A stretch of 64,000 nt of DNA. Source: a virus (Duplodnaviria; Caudoviricetes). The DNA lies in IMG/VR virus record IMGVR_UViG_3300028864_000017. One strand, written 5' to 3'. The position numbers and the translations under genes were made by a program. The notes below the pieces were generated by a model. The model did not search any database, had not been told where the DNA came from, and saw only the letters and a program-made list of their open reading frames with translations. Shown here one piece after another: positions 2,355 to 23,921 of this stretch; position 1 is the first letter of the stretch, and the number at the start of each line of letters is the position of its first letter.

Positions 2355-2362
2355 TATCTTTG
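2355..2362 (+). promoter_or_regulatory. Bacteroidota sigma-A -7 element
   Basis: TATCTTTG 30 nt upstream of ATG 2392. Confidence 0.55.
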
Positions 2363-2391
2363 CATTCATAATCATTATAAATGTAAACACA

Positions 2392-2589
2392 ATGAAATTT
2401 AAAGAATTAGACGAAATTTTACAATTAAGACTTAAAAAATCTTGTAGATTAAATGAATCTTTGAATGGCTGGCTACCTTCAAGTGAAGATTATGTTTATA
2501 TGAAAGATGATGAGGTTGTAGAAATATTCTCAAATAATTTAGAAATAGAATTTAAAGATAATAATATCACATCTGTGAATAAGTATTAA
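2392..2589 (+). CDS. hypothetical protein
   Basis: 65-aa ORF downstream of promoter motif. Confidence 0.65.
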   Translation: MKFKELDEILQLRLKKSCRLNESLNGWLPSSEDYVYMKDDEVVEIFSNNLEIEFKDNNITSVNKY

Positions 2590-3190
2590 TCTTATTTTTT
2601 CTATATTTGACTTTGGATAAATATTTATCGTCGTTTGATATTATTTCATAAGGAATATTATTTTTTTTTAGTAATTCAATTTCATTTGATCTATCTCTAT
2701 TACTATAAATAATATATACTTTTTTTATATATTTTATTGAAACTTCATTTGATACTATAATTTCTTCTGATATATTAAAATCATATGCATCTTTATTTGT
2801 TTTAATATCCCAATATTCTTTTCCAAATTCTTTTAATCTAAGTTCTTGTGCAATTGATAATCCTTTAGTTTTATTTTTTGGTAATTTTAGGTAATAATCC
2901 AAATTTTCAACAATAGGAATAATCTTATATTTATCACTTAGTTTCTGAGTATCAAATTCAATAACGCAATTACCATAACCTACTGCAGTTGAAAAATTTC
3001 TAGTCACTGATATTCCAATTCCATCTTTTATTCCTAAATTTCTTCTCATATCAGAACTCCATTGGTTACCCCATTCGCTTTTTAGTAATTTTATTTTGCC
3101 GTCAAGTAAAATATTTTTTAATTCATTAACTCCCTTATAAAGATTATAATTTTTTGACTCTAATATAAATTCTTCAAATAATATTTTCAT
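2567..3190 (-). CDS. putative virion protein with ADP-ribosyltransferase-like motifs
   Basis: N-terminal MKILFEEFILE; LYKG...ISVTRN...EEII spacing resembles ART folds. Confidence 0.45.
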   Translation of the reverse strand: MKILFEEFILESKNYNLYKGVNELKNILLDGKIKLLKSEWGNQWSSDMRRNLGIKDGIGISVTRNFSTAVGYGNCVIEFDTQKLSDKYKIIPIVENLDYYLKLPKNKTKGLSIAQELRLKEFGKEYWDIKTNKDAYDFNISEEIIVSNEVSIKYIKKVYIIYSNRDRSNEIELLKKNNIPYEIISNDDKYLSKVKYRKNKINTYSQM

Positions 3191-3228
3191 AAAGTTATAT
3201 ATTATTTTTTTATATCAAATTTAATTAG

Positions 3229-3236
3229 TATCTTTG
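3229..3236 (+). promoter_or_regulatory. Bacteroidota -7 promoter element
   Basis: TATCTTTG. Confidence 0.5.
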
Positions 3237-4052
3237 TACATAATTAAAAACATAAACAAAATGCTAAAAGAAATTTTTAAGTTCAGTGAAGACAGTTTTA
3301 AAAATGACATAGTTTATGAAAATAAACTTATTAAGAAGTTAAAATATAGTTTTGATTATTTACTAAAGTATTTACCTATCAACACTGTTGATGATAAATT
3401 CTCTTTTGATGATATAAAAATTAGGGAGGGTAAAAATTATGATTGGTTTTTCTTAGTTAAAGATGATATTCAATTATTGGTAAGACAATATGGTGGTCAT
3501 TTCACATTTATTTGTATTAATAAAGATAAAGAGATTTCATATCATAGTAGAATGTCTGTTTTTACAATCAATGATGATCGTAAAAAAATGGATGACAAAA
3601 CAAGTGACGAGCATTGTGATAATAATTATTTAACAATGGAGGAAATTTTTCCTTCACTATTAGAAATAATTAAAAAAGATAACGTACATACAATTTGGAA
3701 TCCTCTTTCATTGGTTAGACCTGAATATACAGAAGTTAAAATAGCTCAAATAGGAGAAAATACTCACAGCTTAGATTTATTACTTTTTGCATGTGATGAA
3801 GTCTTTCGTATGAATTGCGAATTATTTTCTGAAAACGAAATGGCTAATAAAATAGCTGAATTTAATGTTGGTGATATGTTAGGTGATGCATATAAGATAA
3901 CAGAAGTAAAAAAAGATATTGATGAAGAGTATTTTTATAGTACTGGCTTATCATTCATTAATACAAATTTTCCTGGTAGTAAGGCAGAATGGTCTGATAT
4001 CTATTCATTGACAAGATATTATTTGGAGTATATTTTTCCTGAAAATAAATAA
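3234..4052 (+). CDS. hypothetical protein
   Basis: 272-aa ORF; true start probably a downstream ATG (about 3261). Confidence 0.75.
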   Translation: MYIIKNINKMLKEIFKFSEDSFKNDIVYENKLIKKLKYSFDYLLKYLPINTVDDKFSFDDIKIREGKNYDWFFLVKDDIQLLVRQYGGHFTFICINKDKEISYHSRMSVFTINDDRKKMDDKTSDEHCDNNYLTMEEIFPSLLEIIKKDNVHTIWNPLSLVRPEYTEVKIAQIGENTHSLDLLLFACDEVFRMNCELFSENEMANKIAEFNVGDMLGDAYKITEVKKDIDEEYFYSTGLSFINTNFPGSKAEWSDIYSLTRYYLEYIFPENK

Positions 4053-4082
4053 ATTTAAAATATATAGAAATAAAATTATTAT

Positions 4083-4868
4083 ATGAAAAAAATAAAAACA
4101 TTTGACGAACATAATTCTACAGTTCAATCAAAAGTACCTTTTACTAAGCAAACAATGAAATTAGACATTGATTGGAGAGCAGCAAAGGATTTTGATTTAC
4201 ACTACTATTATAAATGGGTGTGTGATCATCGTATTAAAAATGATGAAAATGGCTGTAATTTACCAAATGGCGCTGATTCTTGGGTAGCTGACACATCTAA
4301 ATTGGACTATATGAGTAAACAGAAAAAAGATTGGTTGTATGAGTATGCATTATCAAAAGGTGGTAGCCCAAAACCAGCATTTACTATTAAAAAAGACACA
4401 AAAATTAAAGTTGTCGATGAAAAATACAATTTGATAATTGAAATTTTAGATGGTCCATATGCTGGTGAAAAATTTGAAGCAAAGTTATCTGATTTTAGAA
4501 CTTGCTTGGTTGGTGAAGCTAAAGATGAAAATTTAGTTGTTTCTAAGTATAAGATATTCTTAAACGGAGAACCATTGAAATCAAAATATTATACTAACAT
4601 GGGAAGAATCAAGCTTGCTTTACTAAATGCATTTGGGTTTCAAAATAGTAATGATAATGATAATGATAATGAAGATGGTGTGCCATATTACATTTCGGAT
4701 TCTAGTTCAACAACATTAAGTAAAAATGATTGTAAAAATGTTAAAATCATTAGATATGACAATAATTCAAAAGTTGGAATTCCTGTTGATTTTAATGTTC
4801 TGGAATTTTATGTTGAATATTTGGAAAAAAAAGAGTTAAAAAAAGACTCAAAAAAATATAATTTATAA
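4083..4868 (+). CDS. hypothetical protein with N-terminal KTFDE and C-terminal KKYNL tags
   Basis: MKKIKTFDEH...DSKKYNL. Confidence 0.8.
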   Translation: MKKIKTFDEHNSTVQSKVPFTKQTMKLDIDWRAAKDFDLHYYYKWVCDHRIKNDENGCNLPNGADSWVADTSKLDYMSKQKKDWLYEYALSKGGSPKPAFTIKKDTKIKVVDEKYNLIIEILDGPYAGEKFEAKLSDFRTCLVGEAKDENLVVSKYKIFLNGEPLKSKYYTNMGRIKLALLNAFGFQNSNDNDNDNEDGVPYYISDSSSTTLSKNDCKNVKIIRYDNNSKVGIPVDFNVLEFYVEYLEKKELKKDSKKYNL

Positions 4869-7574: not shown

Positions 7575-7841
7575 ATGATAACAAATTTGAATATTGGAGA
7601 TAAAATTATTCTAAAAAAACCTTCAAATATATTTGAGGAATTTGGAATACCATCAGATTTGAGTGTTGATGAAACTTATACTATATCTGAGATACATAAA
7701 GGATTAATTGATAATGTCATTATACGTGTTGGAATAAAAGAAAAACCATATTCATTATATTATATTGGATTATTTGAAACATCATTGAAATTTGAAAGAA
7801 GACAAAAATTAAACAACTTGAAAAAATATGAAAAAAACTAA
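7575..7841 (+). CDS. small KOW-like protein with C-terminal RRQKL tag
   Basis: LNIGDKII start; ends ERRQKLNNLKKYEKN. Confidence 0.7.
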   Translation: MITNLNIGDKIILKKPSNIFEEFGIPSDLSVDETYTISEIHKGLIDNVIIRVGIKEKPYSLYYIGLFETSLKFERRQKLNNLKKYEKN

Positions 7842-8904
7842 TTTAAAACTGGCAAACGGAGAAAAAGCACTAATTGTTGATAACAATGAAGTGAAAATTT
7901 TAAAATCAGAAAACTACAATTTTCTATTTAATAAAAAAACAGGATTCTTTGCCAGATGGGGTAAAACAGAAGAAGATGATGGAGATTTAAATCTTGGATT
8001 ACCTGAAATTGCAGATATCGAAATTGCTGAAATTTGTGAAGGTGTTCCTGGAATAGGGCCATGTAAATTCTGCTATAAGAGTAATGGTAATCATGGACAT
8101 AATATGTCATTAGAAACATTCAAAAAAGTTTTCGATAAATTACCATCAAGTATTGGACAAATCGCATTTGGTTGTGGTACATTGAGAAGACATCCTGAAA
8201 TGTGGGAAATTTTCAAATATGCGAAAGATAATGGTGTCACACCAAATTTGACAATAAATGGTGACGTTGATGATGATGAATTTGATAAAATTTCTGAGAT
8301 GTGCGGAGCATGTGCAGTTTCTATTTATGATAAAAATCTATCATATGACGCTATTAAAAAACTTACTGATCGTGGAATGAAACAAGTGAATATTCACTAT
8401 ATGATTAGTCAAGAAACATATGAAAAGGCATTTGAAATAATGGATGATATAAAAACTGATCCAAGACTTGAAAAATTAGGAGCATTAGTATTTTTGAGTT
8501 TAAAAACAAAAGGTAGAAGCAAAGGCAAATTTCATCAATTGACTCAAGAACAATTTTCTAATCTTACTAATTATGCTCTTACTAATTCTGTTCCTATGGG
8601 ATTTGATTCTTGCTCAGCACAAAAATTCATGAAAGCAATTAAAGGACATGTAAATGAAGAAAAAATGATTCAATGTGCAGAACCTTGTGAAAGCACACTA
8701 TATAGCTTATATGTTGATGTCAATGGCAATTTCTTTCCATGTTCATTTTCACCTGATACAGAAGGTTGGGAAAAAGGATTATCTGTAATTGATTGTAATG
8801 ATTTCATTGAAGATATTTGGCAAAATGAAAAAACAAAAAAATTCCGTGATGGTGTCATAAAATGTAGGAACTGTGCTAAAAGTTGTTCAATTTATGAAAT
8901 TTAA
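7828..8904 (+). CDS. radical SAM protein with SPASM/twitch domain
   Basis: CEGVPGIGPCKFC (CX8CX2C) cluster motif; C-terminal PC...VDVNGNFFPCSF...CRNC..SC. Confidence 0.85.
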   Translation: MKKTNLKLANGEKALIVDNNEVKILKSENYNFLFNKKTGFFARWGKTEEDDGDLNLGLPEIADIEIAEICEGVPGIGPCKFCYKSNGNHGHNMSLETFKKVFDKLPSSIGQIAFGCGTLRRHPEMWEIFKYAKDNGVTPNLTINGDVDDDEFDKISEMCGACAVSIYDKNLSYDAIKKLTDRGMKQVNIHYMISQETYEKAFEIMDDIKTDPRLEKLGALVFLSLKTKGRSKGKFHQLTQEQFSNLTNYALTNSVPMGFDSCSAQKFMKAIKGHVNEEKMIQCAEPCESTLYSLYVDVNGNFFPCSFSPDTEGWEKGLSVIDCNDFIEDIWQNEKTKKFRDGVIKCRNCAKSCSIYEI

Positions 8905-11019: not shown

Positions 11020-11907
11020 ATGAATAAATATTTCACATATACAATAAAAGACAAAAAAGATAAAAATTATCTTTTTATTAAATATCTTATTGTAACTAAT
11101 ATAAAATTTTCAAGTTATCATGAATGCGAATATGGTGAGTATATAACTTTCAGTGTTAATAATAACATTCCAAGAAAATTAAAATTAAAAGTTCTAAATA
11201 ACATAAAAATTAGTTATGAAGAACAACAAATTTTAGAAATTATTAGTCAGTCTACACCAGGTGTGAGAATGGATGTTATGTGTGGTTCTGATTTTAATCA
11301 CACTTCTGAAACAGCAAAAAATTTCTCAAATACAAACAACGTAATTTGCAGTTTCAATTTTAATGGTATAATTTGTTTAATTGACAAAAGTACAAATCTC
11401 AATAATTTATATAAGTATTATAATGATGCTCATTTGATGGAATGGGCTAAAATTGGTCCTATATGTGATGATGAATATGATGATAAAACTAAAATTGAGT
11501 ATGAAAAAAAATTAAAAATATCTGAGGAAAAATCTATAAAAAGAAGAATTGAAGAACACAAAAAAGATATTGAAGTTAAAAGAAAGTATAAAGAAAAAAT
11601 AAAAGGAATTGATATTGAACTATTAAATCAAAAAGATTGGGATGATTGGAAGTTAAAAAATAAAGATTCATACGGAAATTGTGTATTTGAATATGCTGAA
11701 GGATGGGCTAAATTAATGCAATCAGAAGCAAAATCAAAAAGTAAAGAAATTGATATTGAATTACTAAAAGAAATTGCAAGTAAAACATCATTTGAAATGG
11801 ATTTTTTAGGAATATCAGGATCAATGTTTTATGCAGCTCAATCAATTCTTGTACAATGTTGGAAATATGGTAGTTTACTTAAAGAATGGAGTGAAATCAA
11901 TAAATGA
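11020..11907 (+). CDS. hypothetical phage protein, probably two domains
   Basis: 295 aa; internal PRKLKLKVL motif; Trp-rich C-terminal domain. Confidence 0.75.
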   Translation: MNKYFTYTIKDKKDKNYLFIKYLIVTNIKFSSYHECEYGEYITFSVNNNIPRKLKLKVLNNIKISYEEQQILEIISQSTPGVRMDVMCGSDFNHTSETAKNFSNTNNVICSFNFNGIICLIDKSTNLNNLYKYYNDAHLMEWAKIGPICDDEYDDKTKIEYEKKLKISEEKSIKRRIEEHKKDIEVKRKYKEKIKGIDIELLNQKDWDDWKLKNKDSYGNCVFEYAEGWAKLMQSEAKSKSKEIDIELLKEIASKTSFEMDFLGISGSMFYAAQSILVQCWKYGSLLKEWSEINK

Positions 11908-12542
11908 AAATAATAAAAGAAACTTGTTATAAAGGAACTAGAATTTTAGTCGGAGGAGAAAAAAGAGAATTAATAAATTCAATGATTAAAATATTAATTG
12001 ATGAATATCATTTTCAGGAAATTCAAATACCAATCATTCAATTTCAAGAATTGTTTCAAAATAAGGTAGGAGAAGAAAATAACAATATGATGTACAATTT
12101 TAAAGATAGAGGAGATAGAGATTTATGCTTAGCTCCTGAATATACTGCAGTTGTTCAAAAACTATCTAAAACAACATACAAAAATGAAAAAGATGTATTA
12201 TTATTCTATGTTTGTGAATGCTTTCGTGGAGAAAAACCACAGCATGGAAGATTTCGTCAATTCACTCAATTTGGAGTTGAAATATTAAATCCTACTCATG
12301 ATTATCTATCAGAAGGAGCAAACTTACAACATTTAGCAATGAAATTATTAACAAAAAATTTCACTGATAATATTGATGATTATGTTATTAACAATGATGT
12401 AAAAAGAGGACTTGATTATTACAAAAATGGTAAGGGATTTGAAATAACTTGCGAAAAATTAGGATCATCAAAACAGATTTGTGGAGGAGGAGAATATGAT
12501 GGAGGAGTTGGATTTGCAATAGGAATTGACAGATTAATATAA
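11904..12542 (+). CDS. histidyl-tRNA synthetase-like protein, catalytic domain only
   Basis: Class II motifs: GTR, MYNFKDRG..LCLAPEYT, FRGEKPQHGRFRQFTQFGVE, GGGEYD..GFAIGIDRL; ends right after motif 3 at 212 aa. Confidence 0.85.
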   Translation: MKIIKETCYKGTRILVGGEKRELINSMIKILIDEYHFQEIQIPIIQFQELFQNKVGEENNNMMYNFKDRGDRDLCLAPEYTAVVQKLSKTTYKNEKDVLLFYVCECFRGEKPQHGRFRQFTQFGVEILNPTHDYLSEGANLQHLAMKLLTKNFTDNIDDYVINNDVKRGLDYYKNGKGFEITCEKLGSSKQICGGGEYDGGVGFAIGIDRLI

Positions 12543-12587: not shown

Positions 12588-12941
12588 ATGAAAATAAGAA
12601 GTGGATTTGTGAGTAACTCAAGTAGCTCATCTTTTGTAATTTTATTACCTGAGAATTTTCTTGAAATTGTTGATTATGATAAAATTACTGATGGTGATGA
12701 AGATTTTCCATTAGACACGTTTAAAGAATTATTGAAAAAACTTATTGATGAAAATGGATTATATAATTATGATATTTATGAGTATATAATATCTAATGAC
12801 GTGGAAGATTATGATTTACCTGATAGTTTAAATGATGTTATTCGTCCATACATAATTGCAGAGGTTGAAGGTGGTCCAGATGAAGGACAAATTATTATTG
12901 CTGATACTAAAAAAATCAATGAAATTTTAAAAAAGAAATAA
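12588..12941 (+). CDS. FVSNSSSSSF-family protein 1
   Basis: Starts MKIRSGFVSNSSSSSF. Confidence 0.85.
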   Translation: MKIRSGFVSNSSSSSFVILLPENFLEIVDYDKITDGDEDFPLDTFKELLKKLIDENGLYNYDIYEYIISNDVEDYDLPDSLNDVIRPYIIAEVEGGPDEGQIIIADTKKINEILKKK

Positions 12942-12945
12942 AATT

Positions 12946-13386
12946 ATGAAAGTAAGAAATGGATTTGTAAGTAATAGTAGCAGTAGTTCTTTTATTGTTA
13001 CTATTAAAAATGGAGAAAAAATATCAAAAAATATTCTTATGAAGTTATTTGATTTAGACGAAAATTCTATATTATTCAACTTTGCAAATGGATTATCGGA
13101 TTGGATGATTAACAATCTTAAAGAAATGAGCATTAAAGATATATTTGAAAATTATTGTGATTCAGGTAAGAATTTATCAGATGAAGAAATGATAGATGAA
13201 ATAATTGAACAAGGATATCCTAATATATCTAGAGAAGATTTGTTAAGAATATTAAGAAAAGAATATCGTTATTATGAAGGTTCAGCATCTGATGATTCTG
13301 GAGATGGATTAGAAACTTATTTATGTGAAACAGGAATAAATGTCAACAATGATTTAATTCACATTCAAAGTGGAGGAGATTATTAA
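12946..13386 (+). CDS. FVSNSSSSSF-family protein 2
   Basis: Starts MKVRNGFVSNSSSSSF. Confidence 0.85.
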   Translation: MKVRNGFVSNSSSSSFIVTIKNGEKISKNILMKLFDLDENSILFNFANGLSDWMINNLKEMSIKDIFENYCDSGKNLSDEEMIDEIIEQGYPNISREDLLRILRKEYRYYEGSASDDSGDGLETYLCETGINVNNDLIHIQSGGDY

Positions 13387-13403
13387 AAAAATAAATTAAA
13401 AAT

Positions 13404-13796
13404 ATGAAAATAAGAAATGGATTTGTAAGTAATTCAAGTAGTTCATCATTTGTAGTAAGAGGAATTAAACTTACAATATATGATTTAGCAAAATGCTTGA
13501 ATATAAAAAATGAAGAATTTGAAGAAATTGAAGATGATTATGATAAATTTGAATTTTTTTCAAATAAACTTGATGATGAATTTAGAATTGAAGCAGATGG
13601 TAATTATTTTGGAGAAAAAGATTACAATACTCTTATTGTAGGTGATTCACTAGGTGGATTAGAAGATGGAGAAGTAACAGAATTTAAAGATCGTACAACA
13701 GAAGAAGATGATGCATTACGTCAAAAATTTGAAAAATATGGAATTACAGGAGTAATTAACACATATATTCAAATGGTGAGTAACGACAATTATTAA
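13404..13796 (+). CDS. FVSNSSSSSF-family protein 3
   Basis: Starts MKIRNGFVSNSSSSSF. Confidence 0.85.
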   Translation: MKIRNGFVSNSSSSSFVVRGIKLTIYDLAKCLNIKNEEFEEIEDDYDKFEFFSNKLDDEFRIEADGNYFGEKDYNTLIVGDSLGGLEDGEVTEFKDRTTEEDDALRQKFEKYGITGVINTYIQMVSNDNY

Positions 13797-13824
13797 ACCA
13801 GTTTAAAATAGAATTAATAATATT

Positions 13825-14271
13825 ATGACAAATAATCAAACTCATAACATATTTTACTTTCTTGGAATTATGATAAATGATAATAAAATTATAAATACAT
13901 CACCTGATTATTTAATAGAAAAAGCTAATGCATTTTTTAGTAAATTAGGAAAAGATGAATTTATATCTAATATTAAAAATATATATCGTTCTCAAAAACT
14001 AGATTACACTACTGAATTTTGGTTATCATATTGTCAAATATGGCATATTGATAAAAACAATTTTGAATTGTTAAATATTATTAATTTTATATTAAATTCA
14101 AATATTACTGATACTAAAAATGTGATTCAAAACTTTAAAAAATATATTGGAGATATTAATATCATTCCTGATTTAGATTTGAGTTTTAAATTGCATCCAA
14201 CATTATTAATACATATAAATAAAAGTATTGATTTTGATAGTAGATATTTAAAGTTATTATCACTAAAATAA
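13825..14271 (+). CDS. hypothetical protein
   Basis: 148 aa, ends SRYLKLLSLK. Confidence 0.7.
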   Translation: MTNNQTHNIFYFLGIMINDNKIINTSPDYLIEKANAFFSKLGKDEFISNIKNIYRSQKLDYTTEFWLSYCQIWHIDKNNFELLNIINFILNSNITDTKNVIQNFKKYIGDINIIPDLDLSFKLHPTLLIHINKSIDFDSRYLKLLSLK

Positions 14272-14291
14272 AAACAAAAGAAAATAAAAGA

Positions 14292-15329
14292 ATGACAAAT
14301 AATATAGCGTTAACGTATGATGATATTCAACTTATACCATTTTATAGTGAAGTAGAACATAGAAATAAAATTTCATTAACAACAAAACTATCTACAAATT
14401 ATGAGTTGATGATACCATTGGTAGCATCACCTATGGATACCGTTTGTGAGCATGAAATGGCGTTTAAAATGTTTCAATTAGGAGGAGTAGGATGTATTCA
14501 TAGATTCATGACTATTGAAGAACAAGTTGATGAAATCAAAAAATTAAAAAAATTAATTGATTATAGTTTATATAATCCTTTTATTAATGTACAGAATATT
14601 CCAATAATGGCATCAGTAGGCTCAAATGGAGATTTTTTAGAAAGGTCTAAATCATTAATAGAATCTGGAGTAAATGTAATTCTTATTGATGTTGCTCATG
14701 GACATCACATAAATGTCAAAAAAGCGATTAAAGAAATAAAAGGATTGAATTTAGGAGTGGATATAATTGCAGGTAATATTGCAACTGCAGAAGCCGCAAT
14801 TGATTTGCAAAATTGGGGAGCTGATGGACTAAGATGTGGTATTGGTGGCGGAAGTCTTTGTACAACTAGAATCAAGACAGGATTTGGTGTTCCAAATGTT
14901 ACAAGTTTAATAGAAATTTTAAATGTTGCAAAAGTACCAGTTATGGCTGATGGTGGAATTAGAACAAGTGGAGATATATCAAAGGCTCTTGCATTAGGTT
15001 CATCTACTATTATGTTAGGCTCACTATTAGCTGGAACAGAAGAATCACCAGGAAAGGTTATAGAGAGTCCTAATGGCTTATATAAACGATATAGAGGCTC
15101 TGCATCATTAGAAACAAAAACTGTTCATGGTCAAGCGGAAAGAAATGTGGAAGGAGAGTCAACAACAATTCCATTTAAAGGAGGAGTCAAATTTGTAATT
15201 GAAGGATTAATAAACGGTGTTCGTTCTGCATTATCTTATGGAGGTGCAAAAAATTTATCTGAATATCACCCTAAATGGTATCAAGTAACAAATGCTGGAA
15301 TTGCTGAAGCAAGACCACATTTATTATAA
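14292..15329 (+). CDS. IMP dehydrogenase / GMP reductase family protein (no CBS domains)
   Basis: LTYDDIQL, SPMDTV, IDVAHGH, GNIAT, GIGGGSLCTTR catalytic loop, ADGGI, YRGSAS, NVEG. Confidence 0.92.
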   Translation: MTNNIALTYDDIQLIPFYSEVEHRNKISLTTKLSTNYELMIPLVASPMDTVCEHEMAFKMFQLGGVGCIHRFMTIEEQVDEIKKLKKLIDYSLYNPFINVQNIPIMASVGSNGDFLERSKSLIESGVNVILIDVAHGHHINVKKAIKEIKGLNLGVDIIAGNIATAEAAIDLQNWGADGLRCGIGGGSLCTTRIKTGFGVPNVTSLIEILNVAKVPVMADGGIRTSGDISKALALGSSTIMLGSLLAGTEESPGKVIESPNGLYKRYRGSASLETKTVHGQAERNVEGESTTIPFKGGVKFVIEGLINGVRSALSYGGAKNLSEYHPKWYQVTNAGIAEARPHLL

Positions 15330-15347
15330 AAATAAAAACATGATAAC

Positions 15348-15809
15348 ATGAAAATAAGAAATGGATTTGTTAGTAATTCATCATCAAGTAGTTTTATTGT
15401 TGGCATAGCCAAGATTAATGATTACAATGAATTTACACAATACACAAAAGATAATAATATTAAATTAGATTATGATGTTAAAGTATTAACCTTATCTAAT
15501 ATTAAAGAAAGTACTAATTATGATATACATTTTAATAACAATAAAATTTATGTAGATTCATTTCAAACAGATGCAAATTTAGATATTAAAGATTGTAAAG
15601 ATGAAGATTTATTTTTAGTTGTTAATATATGTAATAATGAAGGTGATTCAGATTTTATGACATCTGATTATGATGATATTGATTATGATATTGATATGTC
15701 ATTCTTTAATAAAAATGATAAAAACGTTTATAATGCATTTTATAGTAATAAATCGGGATTGGACTTAAATAAATCAGAAGTTTATTTTGGTGCAGGTCGA
15801 AATGGATAA
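15348..15809 (+). CDS. FVSNSSSSSF-family protein 4
   Basis: Starts MKIRNGFVSNSSSSSF. Confidence 0.85.
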   Translation: MKIRNGFVSNSSSSSFIVGIAKINDYNEFTQYTKDNNIKLDYDVKVLTLSNIKESTNYDIHFNNNKIYVDSFQTDANLDIKDCKDEDLFLVVNICNNEGDSDFMTSDYDDIDYDIDMSFFNKNDKNVYNAFYSNKSGLDLNKSEVYFGAGRNG

Positions 15810-15830
15810 AAAATAAAATAAAAATAAAAT

Positions 15831-16133
15831 ATGAAAATAAGAAATGGATTTGTTAGCAATTCATCATCAAGTAGTTTTGTTATAATTGGAGTCAAAAGAT
15901 TAGATTGTACAGAAGAAGAAGTTGAAAATGGATTTGAAAATGGAATAGAAGCACTTGATGTTGAAATGTCTAATTATGGATATATTGTTGGATATATAAT
16001 TTCAAATGGTGAAGAATTAAATTCTAGTATAACACCAATATCTGTTATAATGGAAAAGTCAAAAATAGTAGCAGAAACATTAAATGTTGATATTAGTGAA
16101 GTAGAATTAATAACTGGAACTAGATATTGTTAA
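15831..16133 (+). CDS. FVSNSSSSSF-family protein 5
   Basis: Starts MKIRNGFVSNSSSSSF. Confidence 0.85.
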   Translation: MKIRNGFVSNSSSSSFVIIGVKRLDCTEEEVENGFENGIEALDVEMSNYGYIVGYIISNGEELNSSITPISVIMEKSKIVAETLNVDISEVELITGTRYC

Positions 16134-16150
16134 TATAAATAATATAAAAT

Positions 16151-16789
16151 ATGAAAATAAGAAATGGATTTGTAAGTAACTCATCATCTAGTAGCTTTAT
16201 AATTTCTAACAACAATTTTGAAAGTTTACGTGATCTTGCTACGCATATGATTAAATCGAAATATGATGATTATATGGGTAATACTGGAAGAGATAAACAA
16301 TATGATAAATATAGAATAAAAGAGCATGATTTATACATTAATGGGCTAAAAAATATAGACAAAAATCAGGCAATAACATTTCAAAGTTGTAACTATGATA
16401 CTTATATAAAAAAAGTAGCAGATTGCTATTTAGTTTCTACTAGTAATAACGAAGATTGGGATTTATGGCAATTTAGCACTAAATTAACTGATGATGCAAA
16501 ATCAGAATTACGAATATTATTACAAAAATATAAGGAAGATGATGATGAATGGTGCAGCATAACCAGTCTACTTGATGGTGATAGTGAATTTTATTCTTTT
16601 GATAATGATTATTATTCTTTAGATTATCAATTATTAGGAAAAGAAAGTTATGAATCTTGTCCAATATGTGATAAAAAAGGAGATTTTAATTATATGTGGG
16701 AAACAAAAAAGCACGGTCTTATATGTCCAGTATGTAATACAGTATATAAAAGAAAAGATAAATTAGATGAAATAACTAAAAATTTATAA
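16151..16789 (+). CDS. FVSNSSSSSF-family protein 6 with C-terminal Zn ribbon
   Basis: Same N-terminal motif; CPIC...CPVC; ends KRKDKLDEITKNL. Confidence 0.85.
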   Translation: MKIRNGFVSNSSSSSFIISNNNFESLRDLATHMIKSKYDDYMGNTGRDKQYDKYRIKEHDLYINGLKNIDKNQAITFQSCNYDTYIKKVADCYLVSTSNNEDWDLWQFSTKLTDDAKSELRILLQKYKEDDDEWCSITSLLDGDSEFYSFDNDYYSLDYQLLGKESYESCPICDKKGDFNYMWETKKHGLICPVCNTVYKRKDKLDEITKNL

Positions 16790-16861
16790 TATTTTTGATT
16801 AAAATATTATAATATCAAATATTTTTTATAATTTTGTAAATAAAAATAAAAATAAAAATAT

Positions 16862-17053
16862 ATGTTAGAATTATTAAAATATGCTACTTCAGATTTTTGG
16901 ACATTTATATTTTGTTTTTTCATAATTTCTGTAATTGGAAGTTTTATAGTGGAAATATTCAACGCAATTTTTAAAAAGTCAGAGATTAGAATAGATTTAA
17001 CAGATAAAAAAGATAAACCAGATAAAACAGATAAAACAGATAATAAAAAATAG
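16862..17053 (+). CDS. small membrane protein
   Basis: One TM helix followed by DK(P/T) repeats. Confidence 0.65.
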   Translation: MLELLKYATSDFWTFIFCFFIISVIGSFIVEIFNAIFKKSEIRIDLTDKKDKPDKTDKTDNKK

Positions 17054-17054
17054 T

Positions 17055-17579
17055 ATGAAAATAAGAACTGGATTTGTAAGCAATTCATCATCAAGTAGTT
17101 TTGTAGTTATCTTCCCATTTGAACCGAAATGTATGGAAGATGTAAAAAAAATTCTTTTTAGGGAAGAACAGTTATATTATGGAGATGAAAATTATTCTGT
17201 AAATAAAGTTTCAGAAACTATCTGGAATGATATATGTGATCAAACTAAGAATGATATTGATAAGGCAAGTGAAATAATATCGAATGGATATTTGGAAATG
17301 GAAAATGATGCTCCTGATTTTGATGATTTTAAATATATTGAAGATAGAAATGAAAGATGGGAAGCATTTGCAGAAGCTAAAGATAAATATTCAAAAAAAT
17401 TACTTAAAGAATTTTTCAATGTAAGAAAATTAAAACTTCAAGTTATTGATGGTAAAGAGGTAAATGATGGAGTGATGTATTGTTTTAGTTTTTCAGATAA
17501 TGATGGAGAATATTATAGTGCACTTGAACATGATGGAATATTCAACAAATTAAAAAATATAACTGTCAATTGTCATTGA
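17055..17579 (+). CDS. FVSNSSSSSF-family protein 7
   Basis: Starts MKIRTGFVSNSSSSSF. Confidence 0.85.
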   Translation: MKIRTGFVSNSSSSSFVVIFPFEPKCMEDVKKILFREEQLYYGDENYSVNKVSETIWNDICDQTKNDIDKASEIISNGYLEMENDAPDFDDFKYIEDRNERWEAFAEAKDKYSKKLLKEFFNVRKLKLQVIDGKEVNDGVMYCFSFSDNDGEYYSALEHDGIFNKLKNITVNCH

Positions 17580-17855: not shown

Positions 17856-18033
17856 GTTTATAATATCATTTTCAGTATATATTTATATTGTAATGTTATC
17901 AAACTATAAAATATAAATGAAAATATAAGTAAAATATTAAAAAACAATAAAATATTTGGTAAACAATTCAAACCGAAGTACATTTGTATTGAAATTAAAA
18001 CAACAATCATTTAAATCATCTAAATTAAAAATT

Positions 18034-18198
18034 ATGACTACTAATTCAAGTAAATCAGAAAAAGTTTTCTTTTTGACTAAATCAGAATACAATGGAATTA
18101 AAGAAGTTGTAAATCTAAAAAATTTCACCAGAGTTCCAGGTGCAAATAAAGAAGTTGGTGGCTTCTCATTTTATGCAAAGAAAGAAAATGTTCTATAA
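18034..18198 (+). CDS. small hypothetical protein, copy 1
   Basis: MTTNSSKSEKVFFLT...GGFSFYAKKENVL, 54 aa. Confidence 0.75.
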   Translation: MTTNSSKSEKVFFLTKSEYNGIKEVVNLKNFTRVPGANKEVGGFSFYAKKENVL

Positions 18199-18291: not shown

Positions 18292-18462
18292 ATGACAACT
18301 AATTCAAGTAAATCAACAAAAGTTTTCTTTTTGACTCAAAATGAGTATAATGTTATTAAAGAGGTAGTAAACCTTAAAAATTTCACCAGAGTTCCAGGAA
18401 TAAATAAAGAAGTTGGTGGCTTCTCATTTTATGCAAAGAAAGAAAAAGAACTTGCAATGTAA
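18292..18462 (+). CDS. small hypothetical protein, copy 2 (not in ORF track)
   Basis: MTTNSSKSTKVFFLT...GGFSFYAKKEKELAM, 56 aa, paralog of 18034-18198. Confidence 0.75.
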   Translation: MTTNSSKSTKVFFLTQNEYNVIKEVVNLKNFTRVPGINKEVGGFSFYAKKEKELAM

Positions 18463-19506: not shown

Positions 19507-19578
19507 CGCGCGGTAGGGAAGTGATACCCCGCAAGGCTCATAACCTTGAGAACGCTGGTTTGAGTCCAGCCTGCGCAA
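19507..19578 (+). tRNA. tRNA-Met(CAT), initiator-like
   Basis: Cloverleaf; C1:A72 mismatch; caagg-ctCATaa-ccttg. Confidence 0.85.
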
Positions 19579-19583
19579 CAATT

Positions 19584-19664
19584 AAAAAACTATATTGAAC
19601 AGCACCTCACTGGTAATGGGGACAATGCGAGTACACTAGCAGCTAAACTCAAAATAGTTTTTTT
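19584..19664 (+). ncRNA. candidate structured RNA of unknown type
   Basis: GC-richer insert closed by aaaaaactat/atagtttttt stem, with internal hairpins. Confidence 0.35.
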
Positions 19665-19691
19665 AAAAATAATAAATTAAAAGTAAATATC

Positions 19692-19826
19692 ATGAATAAC
19701 ATTAATAACATATACAGCATTTATCGCAATTGTAATATTAATTACAATATGGAAGAGATATGTATTAATATGATTAATAATGATTATATTAATGATGATG
19801 AAAATAATGTAGGAAGAACTGGATAA
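19692..19826 (+). CDS. putative attenuator leader peptide 2
   Basis: 44 aa MNNINNIYSIYRNCNINYNMEEICINMINNDYINDDENNVGRTG, 14 Asn. Confidence 0.55.
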   Translation: MNNINNIYSIYRNCNINYNMEEICINMINNDYINDDENNVGRTG

Positions 19827-19852
19827 GTTAAAAAATTATTATGTGAATAATA

Positions 19853-19890
19853 AAAAAACTCAGTTCTTAAAAATAAGAACTGAGTTTTTT
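19853..19890 (+). terminator. attenuator-type terminator 2
   Basis: aaaaactcagttctta/taagaactgagttttt stem; 5' arm complementary to 19814-19821. Confidence 0.8.
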
Positions 19891-19933
19891 ATTTTTAAAT
19901 GCTCTTTGAAATACTAGATAATGAATAATAAAT

Positions 19934-20016
19934 GGGAGTAATGCTCAAATTGGTCAGGCGCAAAACTGTAAATTTTGTAACCTTTTAGGTCGTCAGTTCG
20001 AATCTGGCTGCTCCCA
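19934..20016 (+). tRNA. tRNA-Tyr(GTA)
   Basis: caaaa-ctGTAaa-ttttg; variable arm; TTCGAAT. Confidence 0.9.
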
Positions 20017-20026
20017 CAAAAAACAC

Positions 20027-20098
20027 GATGCGTTCGTATATCGGAAAGTACTCTAGGTTTTCAACCTAGCAAGATGAGTTCAACTCTCATACGCATTA
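20027..20098 (+). tRNA. tRNA-Glu(TTC)
   Basis: ctagg-ttTTCaa-cctag. Confidence 0.85.
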
Positions 20099-20106
20099 CA
20101 AAAAAT

Positions 20107-20179
20107 GGGATATAGGTCAAATGGTTAAGATGTCACCCCGTCACGGTGCACGGAGCGAGTTCGAATCTCGTATATCCCG
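20107..20179 (+). tRNA. tRNA-Asp(GTC)
   Basis: cacc-ccGTCac-ggtg; short variable loop. Confidence 0.85.
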
Positions 20180-20202
20180 CTTATTATCAAAAAATTAAAA
20201 AT

Positions 20203-20290
20203 GCATTGGTTGCTTTAGTCGGTCGAAAAGTCTGGTCTGTTAAACCAGTAAGAGTAATCTTCAACGTAGGTTCGAATCCTATCCAGTGCG
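20203..20290 (+). tRNA. atypical tRNA with GTT (Asn) anticodon and long variable arm
   Basis: GCATTGG/CCAGTGC acceptor, G73, ctggt-ctGTTaa-accag, V-arm aaga-gtaa-tctt. Confidence 0.75.
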
Positions 20291-20296
20291 CAAAAA

Positions 20297-20368
20297 GGGA
20301 GTGTAGCTCAAAGGTAGAGCGTTTCGCTGTTAACGAAAGTGTTGGGATGTCGCAATTCCCCACTCCCG
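20297..20368 (+). tRNA. tRNA-Asn(GTT)
   Basis: tttcg-ctGTTaa-cgaaa; short variable loop; non-consensus T-loop (gtcgcaa). Confidence 0.8.
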
Positions 20369-20448
20369 CGAATAAATGATTAACTTTAAACTTTAATCTT
20401 TTTTAATATTATATATTTTTATATATACAATAAAAATATAAATAAATT

Positions 20449-21273
20449 ATGGAAAGCATTAAAACTAAAATATTATCATTAAGAAAAGAAGGAAAAACAT
20501 ACAATGAAATATCAGAATTATTAAATTGTTCAAAAGGTACAATATCTTATCATTGTAAAAAATTATATAATAATATTGAATTAAATAAAAAAAACACAAA
20601 ATTATCAAATTTAAAAAAATTAAAAAATATACCAAATATAGATTTTGGTGATGAGATATCTGATGAGATTTTTAAAAAAGTTATTGAATATCGAATAAAT
20701 GGTAATACATATGAAGAAATAATAGAAAAAACTAAATTATCTTTAGATAAAATTAAAAAAATATGCAGATTAAATAATATCAATGATGGTAATTATAAAA
20801 AAAATAATTATTGTAAAATATATGAAAACGTTAATAATGATGACGTTATTGAAATGCAAAAATACTATGATGAATGTAAAAGTACAAGAAAAGTATCTAA
20901 AAAATTCAATATTGGTAGATATCAAATATCTAAAATTTTAATTATAAATAAAAAAGAAAAATTATCTAAAGAAGAGTATAAAATAAAAAGAAAAAATGAT
21001 ATTGTAAATAATGTTATTAGTTGGAGAAAAGATAAAAAAAGGAAACTTGTTGAATATAAAGGAGGAAAATGCGAAAGGTGTGGATATGATAAATGTATAG
21101 ATGTATTTGATTTTCATCATAAAGATCCTACTCAAAAAGATTTTGGAATAAGTGCAAAATCTTATTCATATGAAAGATTAAAAAAAGAAGTTGATAAATG
21201 TATGTTAGTGTGTAAAAATTGTCACACAGAAATACATTATGAAATAAAAAATAAAAATGGTTCTGGCGCATAA
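20449..21273 (+). CDS. HNH homing endonuclease with N-terminal HTH repeats
   Basis: GGKCERCGY...FDFHHKDP...CMLVCKNCHTEIH; two HTH-like segments; free-standing in tRNA cluster. Confidence 0.9.
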   Translation: MESIKTKILSLRKEGKTYNEISELLNCSKGTISYHCKKLYNNIELNKKNTKLSNLKKLKNIPNIDFGDEISDEIFKKVIEYRINGNTYEEIIEKTKLSLDKIKKICRLNNINDGNYKKNNYCKIYENVNNDDVIEMQKYYDECKSTRKVSKKFNIGRYQISKILIINKKEKLSKEEYKIKRKNDIVNNVISWRKDKKRKLVEYKGGKCERCGYDKCIDVFDFHHKDPTQKDFGISAKSYSYERLKKEVDKCMLVCKNCHTEIHYEIKNKNGSGA

Positions 21274-21344
21274 CGGCTGGTGTACCTGACTGTCACTCAG
21301 GCTTCTCGTAAGGGATATAGGGAATTCGACTTTCCTCAGAACCG
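21259..21344 (+). tRNA. atypical tRNA with GTC (Asp) anticodon and long variable arm
   Basis: GGTTCTG/CAGAACC acceptor, G73, cctga-ctGTCac-tcagg, V-arm tctc-gtaa-ggga. Confidence 0.75.
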
Positions 21345-21354
21345 CAAAGATAAT

Positions 21355-21436
21355 GGAAATATCGCATAGTGGCAATTGCAACTGACTGTAAATCAGTTCT
21401 TTCACAAGTTCGTGGGTTCGAGTCCCTCTATTTCCA
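21355..21436 (+). tRNA. tRNA-Tyr(GTA)
   Basis: actga-ctGTAaa-tcagt. Confidence 0.9.
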
Positions 21437-21443
21437 CAAAAAT

Positions 21444-21517
21444 GACCGAGTGCCCGAATGGAATAAAGGGATAGTCTGCAAAACTATATTGTGTGGGTTC
21501 GAGTCCCACCTTGGCCT
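21444..21517 (+). tRNA. tRNA-Cys(GCA)
   Basis: atagt-ctGCAaa-actat; U73. Confidence 0.85.
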
Positions 21518-21530
21518 CAATGAACATTAT

Positions 21531-21600
21531 GCCGAAGCTTAGTGGAAAAGAGATTTCTCTCATAAGGAAATCCAAATGAGTTCGAACCTCATATTCGGTA
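21531..21600 (+). pseudogene. degenerate tRNA(CAT)
   Basis: Intact anticodon (ctCATaa) and T arms; 2-3 nt missing between acceptor and D arm. Confidence 0.5.
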
Positions 21601-21667
21601 CAGAGTTTATTATTATGACTAGTATCATACTAATAGTATGTTATGATTAATAAAAATAAACTAAAAT

Positions 21668-21741
21668 AGTCTTGTATATCAGTCGGTTAGATTGTCATCC
21701 TGATAAGATGGAGGTCGTGAGTTCAAGTCTCACCAGGACTA
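21668..21741 (+). tRNA. tRNA-Ile(GAT)
   Basis: catc-ctGATaa-gatg; canonical cloverleaf. Confidence 0.9.
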
Positions 21742-21752
21742 CTAAATAACAT

Positions 21753-21829
21753 TGGTGAATATACCCTCTGCCTGATAAGTAGTAGAAAGGTTAATTGGTC
21801 ACATGTGGGTTCAATTCCCACTTCACCAA
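21753..21829 (+). ncRNA. tRNA-like RNA (GAT) without D-arm; D-loop-like motif 3' of anticodon arm
   Basis: TGGTGAA/TTCACCA acceptor, ctgc-ctGATaa-gtag, aagg-ttaattggt, gtggg-ttcaatt-cccac. Confidence 0.7.
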
Positions 21830-21842
21830 CAATAAAAAACAC

Positions 21843-21921
21843 ACTGTCGTATCCCCACTGGCTTATATCCAGTCATTAACAAGGTAATTGGTGTATGAGG
21901 GTTCAAGTCCCTTCGGCAGTA
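21843..21921 (+). ncRNA. tRNA-like RNA (TAT) without D-arm; D-loop-like motif 3' of anticodon arm
   Basis: ACTGTCG/CGGCAGT acceptor, actgg-ctTATat-ccagt, aagg-taattggt, gaggg-ttcaagt-ccctt. Confidence 0.7.
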
Positions 21922-21934
21922 CAATAAACAACAA

Positions 21935-22059
21935 GGTAGTGTAACTCAAAAGCACAAAGGGGATAATTATGAAACTAGAATAAATAATTTGAAACGAGCG
22001 AAGGATAGAGTGCTGGGCCGATGTCTCAGAAGTTGATGGTTCGAGTCCATCTGCTACCA
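21935..22059 (+). tRNA. tRNA(GAT)-like gene with about 50-nt insertion in D-loop
   Basis: GGTAGTG/TGCTACC acceptor, actc/gagt D-stem, ctggg-ccGATgt-ctcag, TTCGAGT. Confidence 0.6.
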
Positions 22060-22068
22060 CAAAAATAT

Positions 22069-22151
22069 GTGATTAATATGACACAGGTAGTCATGTCAGT
22101 ATGTAAAACTGATCTCTTCGGAGGTTGTGGGTTCGAGCCCAACTAGTACCA
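22069..22151 (+). pseudogene. degenerate tRNA-Tyr(GTA)-like sequence
   Basis: tcagt-atGTAaa-actga, ttcg variable arm and T arm present; acceptor stem poorly paired. Confidence 0.4.
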
Positions 22152-22219
22152 CAAAAAATATTTAATACAATTTATATTATTTATATAATTATCACTATTT
22201 ATATATAAATAAAAAAAAT

Positions 22220-22759
22220 ATGAATAAATTAGTCGAGAAATTTAAATCATCACAAGAAAAATTTGCAATATTTTTATCAGATTCATTATCTAGTATGACA
22301 ATGTTTTGGATAATTACAATATTAGTTATATTTCCATTATTTTTTAGTCAGCCATCAGGTTTAGTTGCATGGATGCAATATTTAGTATCAGTTTTCTTTC
22401 AAGGAGTAGCATTACCAGTTTTAGGATATATTGCTAAGATAAGTGGAAGTAGAACTGATGCAATAATATCAAAGATTGAAGAATTATCCGAAAAAATAGA
22501 AGCTATGACAGAGCATATAAATGTTGATGTTGATGACATAAAAACTCATGTAGTTGATATTGATATTGAATTAAAAGATGTAGATACTGATGTTAGTGAC
22601 ATAAAAAGTCATGTTGATGATATAGATATTGAGTTAAAGTATGCTGACACAGACGTTAATGAAATACAAAATCATGTTGATAATATACAAGAAGATTTAA
22701 AAAATGTAGACTTTGACATAAATAACATTCAAGATAATATAGAAAAAGAAAAAAAATAA
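22220..22759 (+). CDS. membrane protein with C-terminal coiled-coil repeats
   Basis: Two TM helices followed by D/I/V-rich heptad repeats. Confidence 0.8.
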   Translation: MNKLVEKFKSSQEKFAIFLSDSLSSMTMFWIITILVIFPLFFSQPSGLVAWMQYLVSVFFQGVALPVLGYIAKISGSRTDAIISKIEELSEKIEAMTEHINVDVDDIKTHVVDIDIELKDVDTDVSDIKSHVDDIDIELKYADTDVNEIQNHVDNIQEDLKNVDFDINNIQDNIEKEKK

Positions 22760-22830
22760 TTTACATTAAAATTATCATTGTATAAAAATTTTAATATAAT
22801 TTGTACTATTTATACATAAAGACAAATGAT

Positions 22831-23211
22831 ATGGATAATTTAGTAGAAAATATTAAGTCGGAGCAAGAAAATATATCATTAAGAACTGATGATATTATTA
22901 CAAAGATAGAAGAGTTATCTAAAAAAATAGACACAATAACTGCACAAATAACAAATGAAGTTAGTGAAATAAAAAATATTATTTATGACATACAACAAAA
23001 TATAAAAAATGTTGATACTGATGTTGATAATATAGTAGGTAATGTAGGTGAAATAAAAGGAGAATTAAAGGATGTTGATTCTGATATTAGTAAAATCAAA
23101 GATGATATTAAAAATGATAATTTGGAAGATATTAAAGACAGTGAAGAATTAAAAAACGCAATAAAAAAGAAATCTGGTGGAATTACATATAATGTAGTTA
23201 TTCAACAATAA
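22831..23211 (+). CDS. coiled-coil protein paralogous to the C-terminus of 22220-22759
   Basis: RTDDIITKIEELSKKI versus RTDAIISKIEELSEKI. Confidence 0.7.
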   Translation: MDNLVENIKSEQENISLRTDDIITKIEELSKKIDTITAQITNEVSEIKNIIYDIQQNIKNVDTDVDNIVGNVGEIKGELKDVDSDISKIKDDIKNDNLEDIKDSEELKNAIKKKSGGITYNVVIQQ

Positions 23212-23274
23212 AAAATTTTTAATATTGAATATACAAAAAAATTGTGTATCTTTGTTTTTATTTAAAAAATCAAC

Positions 23275-23760
23275 ATGAAATACGGAATTTACACATTAGT
23301 AATTGAGAATTATATCACTAAAAATTTACCTCTACTAAGTACATTTTCATTAAAAATGGAATTCGGATGGGGTAATGGTTATATATTAATACCTAATAAT
23401 CATCCATCATATGGAGTTTCATATGATGATATGAATACAATAAGTGTACATGGAGGATTAACATATGGTCAATTTTTTGATTCTAAATCATTTTTAGAAT
23501 GGATTGATAATTTAGAAATTGATGGTGATGTAACAATAGATAATTATAAAAAATTAGATAATTATTGGATGATAGGATTTGATACTAATCATTATGGAGA
23601 TAGTATTGAAAAATGTTCTAAAGAATATGTAATACATCAATCTGAATATTTAATGGAACAATGTTTAAATAATAAAATAGAAGGAGTTATGAAATACAAA
23701 TTAGCATACTCAAGAAAAGAAAAATTAAAAAACATTAATCAAGTCATTAAAAATAAATGA
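23275..23760 (+). CDS. conserved phage protein of unknown function
   Basis: WGNGY..P..HP, VHGGLTY, W.IGFDTNH motifs; ends SRKEKLKNI; TATCTTTG upstream. Confidence 0.8.
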   Translation: MKYGIYTLVIENYITKNLPLLSTFSLKMEFGWGNGYILIPNNHPSYGVSYDDMNTISVHGGLTYGQFFDSKSFLEWIDNLEIDGDVTIDNYKKLDNYWMIGFDTNHYGDSIEKCSKEYVIHQSEYLMEQCLNNKIEGVMKYKLAYSRKEKLKNINQVIKNK

Positions 23761-23774
23761 GTAAATACTTACAT

Positions 23775-23846
23775 GTGCTTATAGTGTAATGGATAACACG
23801 TATCACTACGGATGATGAGTTGAAGGTTCGAGTCCTTCTAGGCATA
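23775..23846 (+). tRNA. tRNA-Arg(ACG)
   Basis: atca-ctACGga-tgat; canonical cloverleaf. Confidence 0.9.
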
Positions 23847-23921
23847 CAAAAAAATCAATTTGGACTAATTTAATTTTATATATAAGTTAATTAATAAACT
23901 TAAAATTAAAAAATTAAATAA

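Follow-up and report, generated by a model that had tools for sequence, protein, structure and literature searches.

Radical SAM/SPASM enzymes are known for two-electron oxidations, among them the conversion of Ser to formylglycine by the anaerobic sulfatase maturases, the alcohol oxidation carried out by BtrN and the formation of side-chain cross-links. The anaerobic sulfatase-maturating enzymes (anSME, AtsB) are radical SAM/SPASM enzymes whose target is a Ser or Cys within a short motif carried by a full-length protein. A common N-terminal peptide on several phage proteins is familiar from T4, whose internal proteins IPI, IPII, IPIII and Alt share a capsid-targeting sequence. Here we report on a stretch of 64,000 nucleotides (hereafter “the window”) from the IMG/VR virus record IMGVR_UViG_3300028864_000017 (Duplodnaviria; Caudoviricetes), in which an array of seven small proteins begins with a nearly invariant 16-residue peptide, hereafter the tag, and in which a radical SAM/SPASM enzyme is encoded upstream of the array on the same strand. 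Further systems that come close are the clusters for peptides made by the ribosome and modified after translation (RiPPs) with the enzymes SkfB, StrB/SuiB, CteB/SCIFF, MftC, PqqE and the triceptide 3-CyFEs (PMC11499958), and the FxSxx-COOH peptides that occur together with the radical SAM/SPASM enzyme FxsB in vWA-MoxR/STAND conflict systems (Kaur et al. 2020, PMC7159879). Cyclophane-type linkages at F-x-S have been described for the Fxs and triceptide systems (PMC11499958, PMC7159879).

With the RiPP clusters, whose several precursors have a recognition sequence in common, the phage locus shares an enzyme with a radical SAM core and a C-terminal auxiliary-cluster domain, whose weak best profile matches are such maturases, and also the placement of one enzyme gene beside several same-strand genes whose products carry a short conserved segment and are otherwise variable. 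In contrast to RiPP clusters, the phage “precursors” are folded proteins of 100-275 amino acids (aa), the conserved segment sits at the very N-terminus and includes Met1, and the system is essentially confined to large phages, has no recurrent protease or exporter and contains an enzyme that reaches no curated maturase cut-off. With a median length of 138 aa (range 82-275), confidently folding bodies and no recurrent protease or transporter, the tagged proteins are not classical RiPP precursors. The sulfatase maturases offer the nearest precedent for Ser chemistry and for substrates that are proteins and not peptides, but the sulfatase motif (C/S-x-P/A-x-R) is not found in the tag and the phage bodies have no sulfatase domain. 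No anSME model occurred among the NCBIfam matches of 31 homologues of the phage enzyme, and the locus is not assigned to that system.

An aromatic-x-Ser motif (F7-V8-S9 of the tag) combined with a radical SAM/SPASM enzyme in a setting of biological conflict recalls the Fxs systems. The phage motif is N-terminal (residues 7-9), whereas the Fxs motif sits at the C-terminal end, and the phage system is without a metallopeptidase partner. The FxsB model was not among the enzyme-homologue matches at E<=1e-3 and no peptidase recurs among the neighbours, so the locus is no FxsA/FxsB system either. The T4 internal proteins resemble the tagged proteins in that a short conserved N-terminal peptide precedes payloads that are unrelated to one another, with genes located in hypervariable regions of T4-like phages. 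The phage tag, however, is conserved well beyond one capsid lineage, and we know of no radical SAM partner of the T4 signal. Data on virion packaging of tagged proteins were not found in the literature searched, and no paper giving the motif or reporting the pairing came up in full-text searches on the motif and on radical SAM systems in phages. The locus is best seen as a genuine phage system, very widespread and apparently not yet described, in which radical SAM/SPASM maturation would act on a universal N-terminal tag of folded proteins.

The tag array and its protein family

The window is AT-rich (GC content about 23-25%) and belongs to a viral record of 143 kb with a CheckV completeness of 20%. 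All seven open reading frames (ORFs) of the original prediction exist. They are located on the + strand, encode 100-212 aa and each start with MK[IV]R[SNT]GFVSNSSSSSF. A degenerate DNA pattern for GFVSNSSSSSF found exactly 7 matches in the window versus 0 in 100 shuffles, and across the whole 143-kb record the same pattern found 7 matches, all of which are the array ORFs. Within the array the tag peptides are 95% identical versus 73% identity at their third codon positions, and the copies differ in whether they use TCN or AGY codons at Ser positions 11-15. Taken together, Ser codon switching and the lower third-position identity point to selection on the peptide level and not to a DNA repeat, in agreement with the original prediction.

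All seven proteins match phrog_7397 (phage proteins of unknown function) with E values from 7e-11 to 2e-3, while scans against Pfam, NCBIfam and PADLOC returned no meaningful match. In five of the seven the phrog_7397 match is confined to the first 19-29 residues; the two others are the proteins that start at 17055 and 15348 (array proteins are named by their start positions below). Protein 17055 (17055..17579, +; 174 aa) is a full-length member, matched over residues 1-170 (E 7e-11). Its 51 full-length homologues from metagenomes have in common the invariant tag and a C-terminal SDNDG..LEH..H, in which the last residue is His; the invariant residues of this subfamily are D148, E158, H159 and H174. 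The segment 148-174, with D148, E158, H159 and the terminal His, may be a metal site. Protein 12946 (12946..13386, +; 146 aa) has a body homologous to that of 17055: with bodies only, HHalign against the 17055 family covered the whole body at a probability of 98.3% (E 1.7e-14). Protein 15348 (15348..15809, +; 153 aa) belongs to the subfamily of Klebsiella phage KP15_97, matches phrog_7397 over residues 1-138 (E 8.6e-5) and has body homologues that include the KP15 gene at 13901-14368 of locus L068.

The remaining four proteins are individual cases. Protein 12588 (12588..12941, +; 117 aa) carries the tag MKIRSGFVSNSSSSSF in front of a helical body with a beta-hairpin, is matched by phrog_7397 in residues 1-29 only and has 19 body homologues in other phage loci. 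Protein 13404 (13404..13796, +; 130 aa) has an acidic body for which no relatives were detected among the other six array proteins, and its match to phrog_7397 comprises residues 1-22 only. The shortest protein, 15831 (15831..16133, +; 100 aa), is matched in residues 1-19 only and has 4 body homologues. The longest, 16151 (16151..16789, +; 212 aa), has a C-terminal CxxC...CxxC zinc-ribbon-like end with weak zinc-ribbon matches (YnfU family, E 7e-4; also Pfam) and 12 body homologues.

Identity between array bodies averages 19%, with a maximum of 28% and a lowest figure of 13%. Body-only HHalign comparisons between the paralogs, made with shallow profiles, were negative in 20 of 21 pairs. The original prediction had the seven proteins diverge completely behind the tag. 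This holds for 12588, 13404 and 15831, whose bodies revealed no similarity to other array bodies, and is overstated for the family as a whole given the homology of 12946 to 17055 and the long phrog_7397 match of 15348; judged by their sequences, the bodies of 12946, 15348 and 17055 are detectably related. A recurring [SC][DN][DN][DE] element had also been proposed. It is indeed enriched, in 3 of the 7 array proteins (0.56 expected, P ~0.01) and in 39 of 277 tagged proteins (11 +/- 3 expected), and the invariant Asp of the 17055 subfamily lies inside it, but within the array it is confined to those three proteins. The shared cryptic fold derived from it may likewise apply to three or four proteins and does not extend to the rest of the seven.

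Beyond the window the family is very large and almost entirely viral. A profile search with 17055 in 1.84 billion cluster representatives (clusters at 50% identity) recovered 7,499 clusters at E<=1e-3, 775 of them still at E<=1e-30. In the ESM Atlas, clusters sharing the 17055 fold shape are 100% viral, and a feature search there led to unnamed viral clusters only. A scan of one genome per prokaryotic species gave 16 tag loci, almost all of them on contigs of metagenome-assembled genomes (MAGs) that resemble phage DNA. A tblastn search with ORF 17055 against GenBank phages gave no match, probably as a result of divergence combined with low-complexity filtering. For the comparative work 77 IMG/VR loci with 10-kb flanks were collected by the tag (contigs of 6-548 kb, many >100 kb). 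In these loci 1-14 tagged ORFs stand in tandem on one strand, and their products have a median pI of 4.7. An orthologue of 17055 on contigs of 330 kb and 711 kb suggests that the phage genome may measure several hundred kb.

The tag consensus is M-K-[IV]-R-x-G-[FYH]-V-[STA]-N-S-S-S-S-S-[FY]. In 328 of 354 cases its Gly follows the start Met at a distance of exactly 5 residues. An aromatic residue occupies position 7 in nearly all cases (F most often, followed by Y, H and W), S is the commonest residue at position 9, ahead of T, A and G, and N10, S11 and S12 do not vary. Gly6 is replaced in real tags by S, A, K, C, D, N or Y, and residue 9 is Gly in a real 17055 orthologue (P0006). Proteins recovered with profiles of the bodies only were almost all tagged, which indicates that bodies and tag are coupled. 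Where a genome uses a rare tag variant, all of its paralogs share it (H7 in 4/4; S6+A9 in 4/4; T9 in 3/3, at two separate loci), although their bodies are just 13-22% identical. This genome-wide sharing is what would be expected from one genome-specific reader or partner of the tag.

Structure predictions set the tag apart from the body. AlphaFold2 modelled 17055 with a pLDDT (predicted local distance difference test) of 87, with residues 1-6 and 8-10 below 50, and 12588 with a pLDDT of 84, with residues 1-12 below 50. In both models the low-scoring tag stands directly before the first strand, and a tail that is invariant but predicted to be unpacked fits an intermolecular role. The predicted bodies differ, being an alpha/beta fold in 17055 and helices plus a hairpin in 12588. 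Searches with the 17055 model (PDB Foldseek, wide VIA-align PDB, BFVD, AFDB clusters and ESM Atlas) found no known fold, the best Z of 3.6 coming from uncharacterised family members only. The 12588 model gave weak winged-helix-like matches with Z at most 5.2, which is below the reliable level of the tool.

The radical SAM/SPASM enzyme and its linkage to the tag

The proposed tag maturase is encoded at 7828..8904 (+; 358 aa) and is, from its sequence features, a radical SAM enzyme with a SPASM/twitch-like end. It matches Pfam SPASM (E 2.7e-6) and phrog_7293 (E 1e-95). In an alignment of 31 homologues, of which 24 match Pfam Radical_SAM (PF04055) and 21 match SPASM (PF13186), the invariant cysteines are C70, C79 and C82 plus C262, C287, C305 and C353. 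The first three constitute the SAM-cluster triad, which is spaced as Cx8Cx2C here (a lengthened loop) and shows the canonical Cx3Cx2C pattern in many relatives; the segment C287-x12-G-x4-C305 agrees with the SPASM signature. The nearest relatives, all of them weak matches, are maturases of peptides or proteins, namely the W-cofactor oxidoreductase maturase, MftC, StsB, SkfB and the twitch domain of BtrN. The gene is single-copy in the 143-kb record. Among GenBank phages the enzyme is present in 172 records, mostly Slopekvirus (KP15, KP27, Miro) and Pseudotevenvirus, the latter including the E. coli phages Lw1 and phT4A, where it is annotated as “radical SAM protein” or “hypothetical”.

For the neighbourhood analysis every ORF of the tag-seeded loci was clustered by BLASTP. 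Homologues of the enzyme were found in 51 of 78 tag loci (the 77 plus the window) and thus form the dominant neighbour; the next-best, a GMP reductase, reached 13. In all 50 of the 77 tag-seeded loci that have the enzyme, it is located on the strand of the array, upstream in 34, inside in 12 and downstream in 4, often at a distance of 0-1 kb. Many tag loci without the enzyme are truncated on their upstream side. Four of five whole records without a nearby enzyme carry it elsewhere (complete genomes 3/3), and all five MAG or isolate assemblies with a tag gene also have the enzyme, on the same contig where this can be compared. The reverse search gave the same picture: 66 of 80 enzyme-seeded loci carry 1-13 tag ORFs within 10 kb, and all 269 of these ORFs are on the enzyme strand. 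At least 4 of the 14 apparently tagless loci contain variant tags (GHVSN or SFVAN, in the forms MKIRxGHVSNSS.. and MKxRQSFVANSS..) or a tag behind a mis-called start.

Neither a protease nor an exporter or transporter was found to recur near the tag among the neighbours of tag-seeded loci, from which it appears that the tag is probably retained and acts inside the cell. A minimal version of the system is present in the cultured phages KP15, Miro and E. coli phage Lw1. KP15_102 and KP15_97 are tagged proteins annotated as hypothetical, and Lw1 and Miro possess two tag genes each, on the enzyme strand; those of Lw1 lie at about 66.5 and 70.4 kb, and its enzyme is Lw1_gp161. The two tag genes of Slopekvirus flank a 739-aa MIDAS/vWA protein (2327-4543 in the KP15 locus L192, between KP15_97 and KP15_102). 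This gene recalls the bacterial vWA conflict systems with radical-SAM-modified FxS peptides (PMC7159879); a vWA gene did not recur with the tag in other tag-seeded loci.

Proposed maturation of the tag and competing readings

The framing of the original prediction as a constant leader plus variable payload proved right. Among the three mechanisms it offered (a common maturase, a self-processing Ser motif, or a paralogous effector family docking on one target), comparative genomics strongly favours a radical SAM/SPASM maturase, on the grounds that enzyme and tag are linked in both directions, on the same strand, and that the enzyme is the most frequent neighbour. We consider that the tag is probably the recognition and modification site of this enzyme. 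The locus would then represent a two-component phage system, in which one radical SAM/SPASM enzyme serves a set of small proteins with a common N-terminal 16-mer. The 16-mer would be a flexible tail ahead of the first strand of each folded body, and the enzyme would recognise this tail and modify at least one residue in the invariant N-S-S(-S-S-S) core. The likeliest reaction would be a two-electron oxidation typical of SPASM/twitch enzymes, i.e. a side-chain cross-link or the conversion of Ser to formylglycine. The modified tail may confer a common property (e.g. stability, docking or reactivity) on diverse payloads during infection, and these payloads would be accessory proteins of various kinds: one has a zinc-ribbon-like end, and one subfamily carries an Asp/Glu/His/His site. 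Binding of the tag by the enzyme, its modification, the chemistry and the biological purpose are what we infer from the genomic pattern.

Several observations weigh against this interpretation. Genomic linkage is no proof of an enzyme-substrate relation, and folded substrates of 100-275 aa are unusual for the enzyme class, the anaerobic sulfatase maturases excepted. No model reached its curated family cut-off with the enzyme, which makes its chemistry unreadable from homology. Three fully flanked enzyme-seeded loci have no tag within 10 kb. In the window itself the enzyme lies 3.7 kb upstream of the array, with several ORFs in between, one of them on the opposite strand, and in Slopekvirus it is located ~20 kb from the tag genes, a separation which means that co-transcription is not general. 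A complex prediction of the enzyme with S-adenosylmethionine, two clusters and ORF 17055 gave scores of 0.57, 0.12 and 0.01, which count neither way. As to the type of modification, a three-residue F-x-S cyclophane at residues 7-9 is attractive, residue 7 staying aromatic, yet it is weakened by Gly or Ala at position 9; the Gly of the orthologue speaks against the idea that a cross-link to the beta-carbon at this position is obligatory. A glycyl-radical loop (R-V-x-G-[YF]) was also considered and rejected, since Gly6 varies and the Arg stands 2, not 3, residues before the Gly. Likewise rejected was an identification of the enzyme as a glycyl-radical activase: activases have no SPASM domain, and the enzyme here has a SPASM-type end.

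The same linkage, the genome-specific tag variants and the free tail would also be accounted for if the tag were a docking peptide, by which the variable body brings targets to the radical SAM enzyme or regulates it. The targets would then be host or phage proteins or nucleic acids, differing from one tagged protein to the next, and one enzyme with up to 14 diverse bodies would suit such an arrangement. We nevertheless regard it as unlikely: to our knowledge no radical SAM/SPASM enzyme has exchangeable adaptor subunits, the invariant run of five hydroxyl residues resembles a reaction site more than a docking strand, and no candidate for a third-party substrate recurs in tag loci. Distinctly unlikely is a bolder extension of the maturation reading, in which the enzyme-made reactive or cross-linked cap (a formylglycine “aldehyde tag” or a strained ring) serves as a counter-defence “passport” for phage proteins. 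With such a cap, dozens of unrelated early proteins could bind or imitate a ligand of host conflict machinery, for example of the peptide-sensing vWA/STAND systems that use radical-SAM-modified FxS peptides. It is quite improbable, in our view, that the tag works independently of the enzyme, as a linear motif binding a host or phage hub or as a signal for capsid targeting of the kind known from T4 internal proteins, with the enzyme merely residing in the same accessory-gene neighbourhood. The layout of a variable payload behind a conserved N-terminal peptide, encoded in hypervariable early regions of phages that are T4-like or larger, is in line with this, as are the acidic bodies. So is the adjoining anti-defence-type gene (11020-11907, +; 295 aa), which matches Pfam Tad4 (type I Thoeris inhibitor; E 6e-20) in the C-terminal 90 residues of its product. 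Such independence is nonetheless difficult to reconcile with a two-way linkage across very divergent phages that survives a separation of ~20 kb, with no other neighbour being as frequent, and a capsid signal should vary by capsid lineage, whereas the tag is nearly invariant across thousands of clusters.

A self-processing or catalytic Ser, be it a pyruvoyl-type Ser-Ser cleavage, an N-terminal nucleophile (Ntn) or part of a metal site with SDNDG/EH/H, draws on the invariant Asp, Glu and two His residues that the 17055 subfamily has besides the tag, and on the enrichment of the [SC][DN][DN][DE] element. However, these body residues are missing in most tagged proteins (EH is present in 53 and the terminal His in 57 of 277), the tag is a free tail in the models and does not pack against them, no profile or fold similarity to known pyruvoyl or Ntn enzymes was found, and the linkage to the enzyme would be left unexplained. 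This makes the idea very improbable, and nothing emerged in support of the pyruvoyl-type motif suggested in the original prediction. The probability becomes practically negligible for a role as a nucleic-acid element, be it DNA repeat, translation-initiation cassette or recombination site, and for maturation by a HisRS-like enzyme. The seven copies hardly differ in their first eight codons, but the switching between TCN and AGY at five Ser positions and the retention of the peptide in phages with entirely different codon choices, e.g. Lw1 and Miro, speak against a nucleic-acid role, and a DNA repeat is ruled out by the codon data. The HisRS/HisZ-like class II core (11904-12542, +; 212 aa; shortened and without an anticodon-binding domain), which had been named as a possible maturase alongside the radical SAM enzyme, is encoded directly upstream of the array, yet such a gene occurs in just 3 loci, all close relatives, and is therefore unlinked to the tag. 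The Tad4-domain gene, likewise restricted to 3 related loci, was rejected as a partner on the same grounds.

Neighbouring genes and significance

The HisRS-like ORF overlaps the Tad4-domain ORF by 4 nucleotides, and the two, seen in close relatives only, may be a separate counter-defence pair. A gene of the GMP reductase/IMPDH family (14292-15329, +) is located inside the tag array, and such genes lie near arrays in 13 loci; in the 330-kb relative (L092, 6738-8309) the gene is split by an intein (Pfam Intein_splicing). A pol-beta-type nucleotidyltransferase-like ORF occurs near arrays in 11 loci and an isochorismatase/nicotinamidase-like ORF in 7, both as occasional neighbours judged only from N-terminal sequences (e.g. 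L034 10621-11790, L047 2112-2924 and similar ORFs). Downstream of the array, two adjacent small ORFs (17956-18198, + and 18292-18462, +) are clear paralogs of each other (..TTNSSKS.KVFFLT..NLKNFTRVPG..GGFSFYAKKE..) and are untagged. Eight tRNA genes (Met, two Tyr, Glu, Asn, Cys, Ile and Arg) are found at 19507-23847, in a cluster interrupted by a gene for a 274-aa helix-turn-helix protein (20449-21273), and a full-length homologue of peptidase M3/oligoendopeptidase F (Pfam E 8e-64) is encoded at 60208-62007 (-).

If the proposed maturation of the tag by the radical SAM/SPASM enzyme is true, the two would form an undescribed phage system for post-translational protein tagging, comprising thousands of clusters and up to 14 substrates per genome, with representatives among cultured phages of Klebsiella and E. 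coli that serve as therapy candidates. Radical SAM/SPASM maturation would then reach beyond peptides and sulfatases to folded proteins of a broad range, and new serine chemistry could come to light. A portable 16-residue tag with a single maturase would also be of interest to protein engineers. For phage biology, the system would provide a first functional handle on a large block of “hypothetical” early genes.

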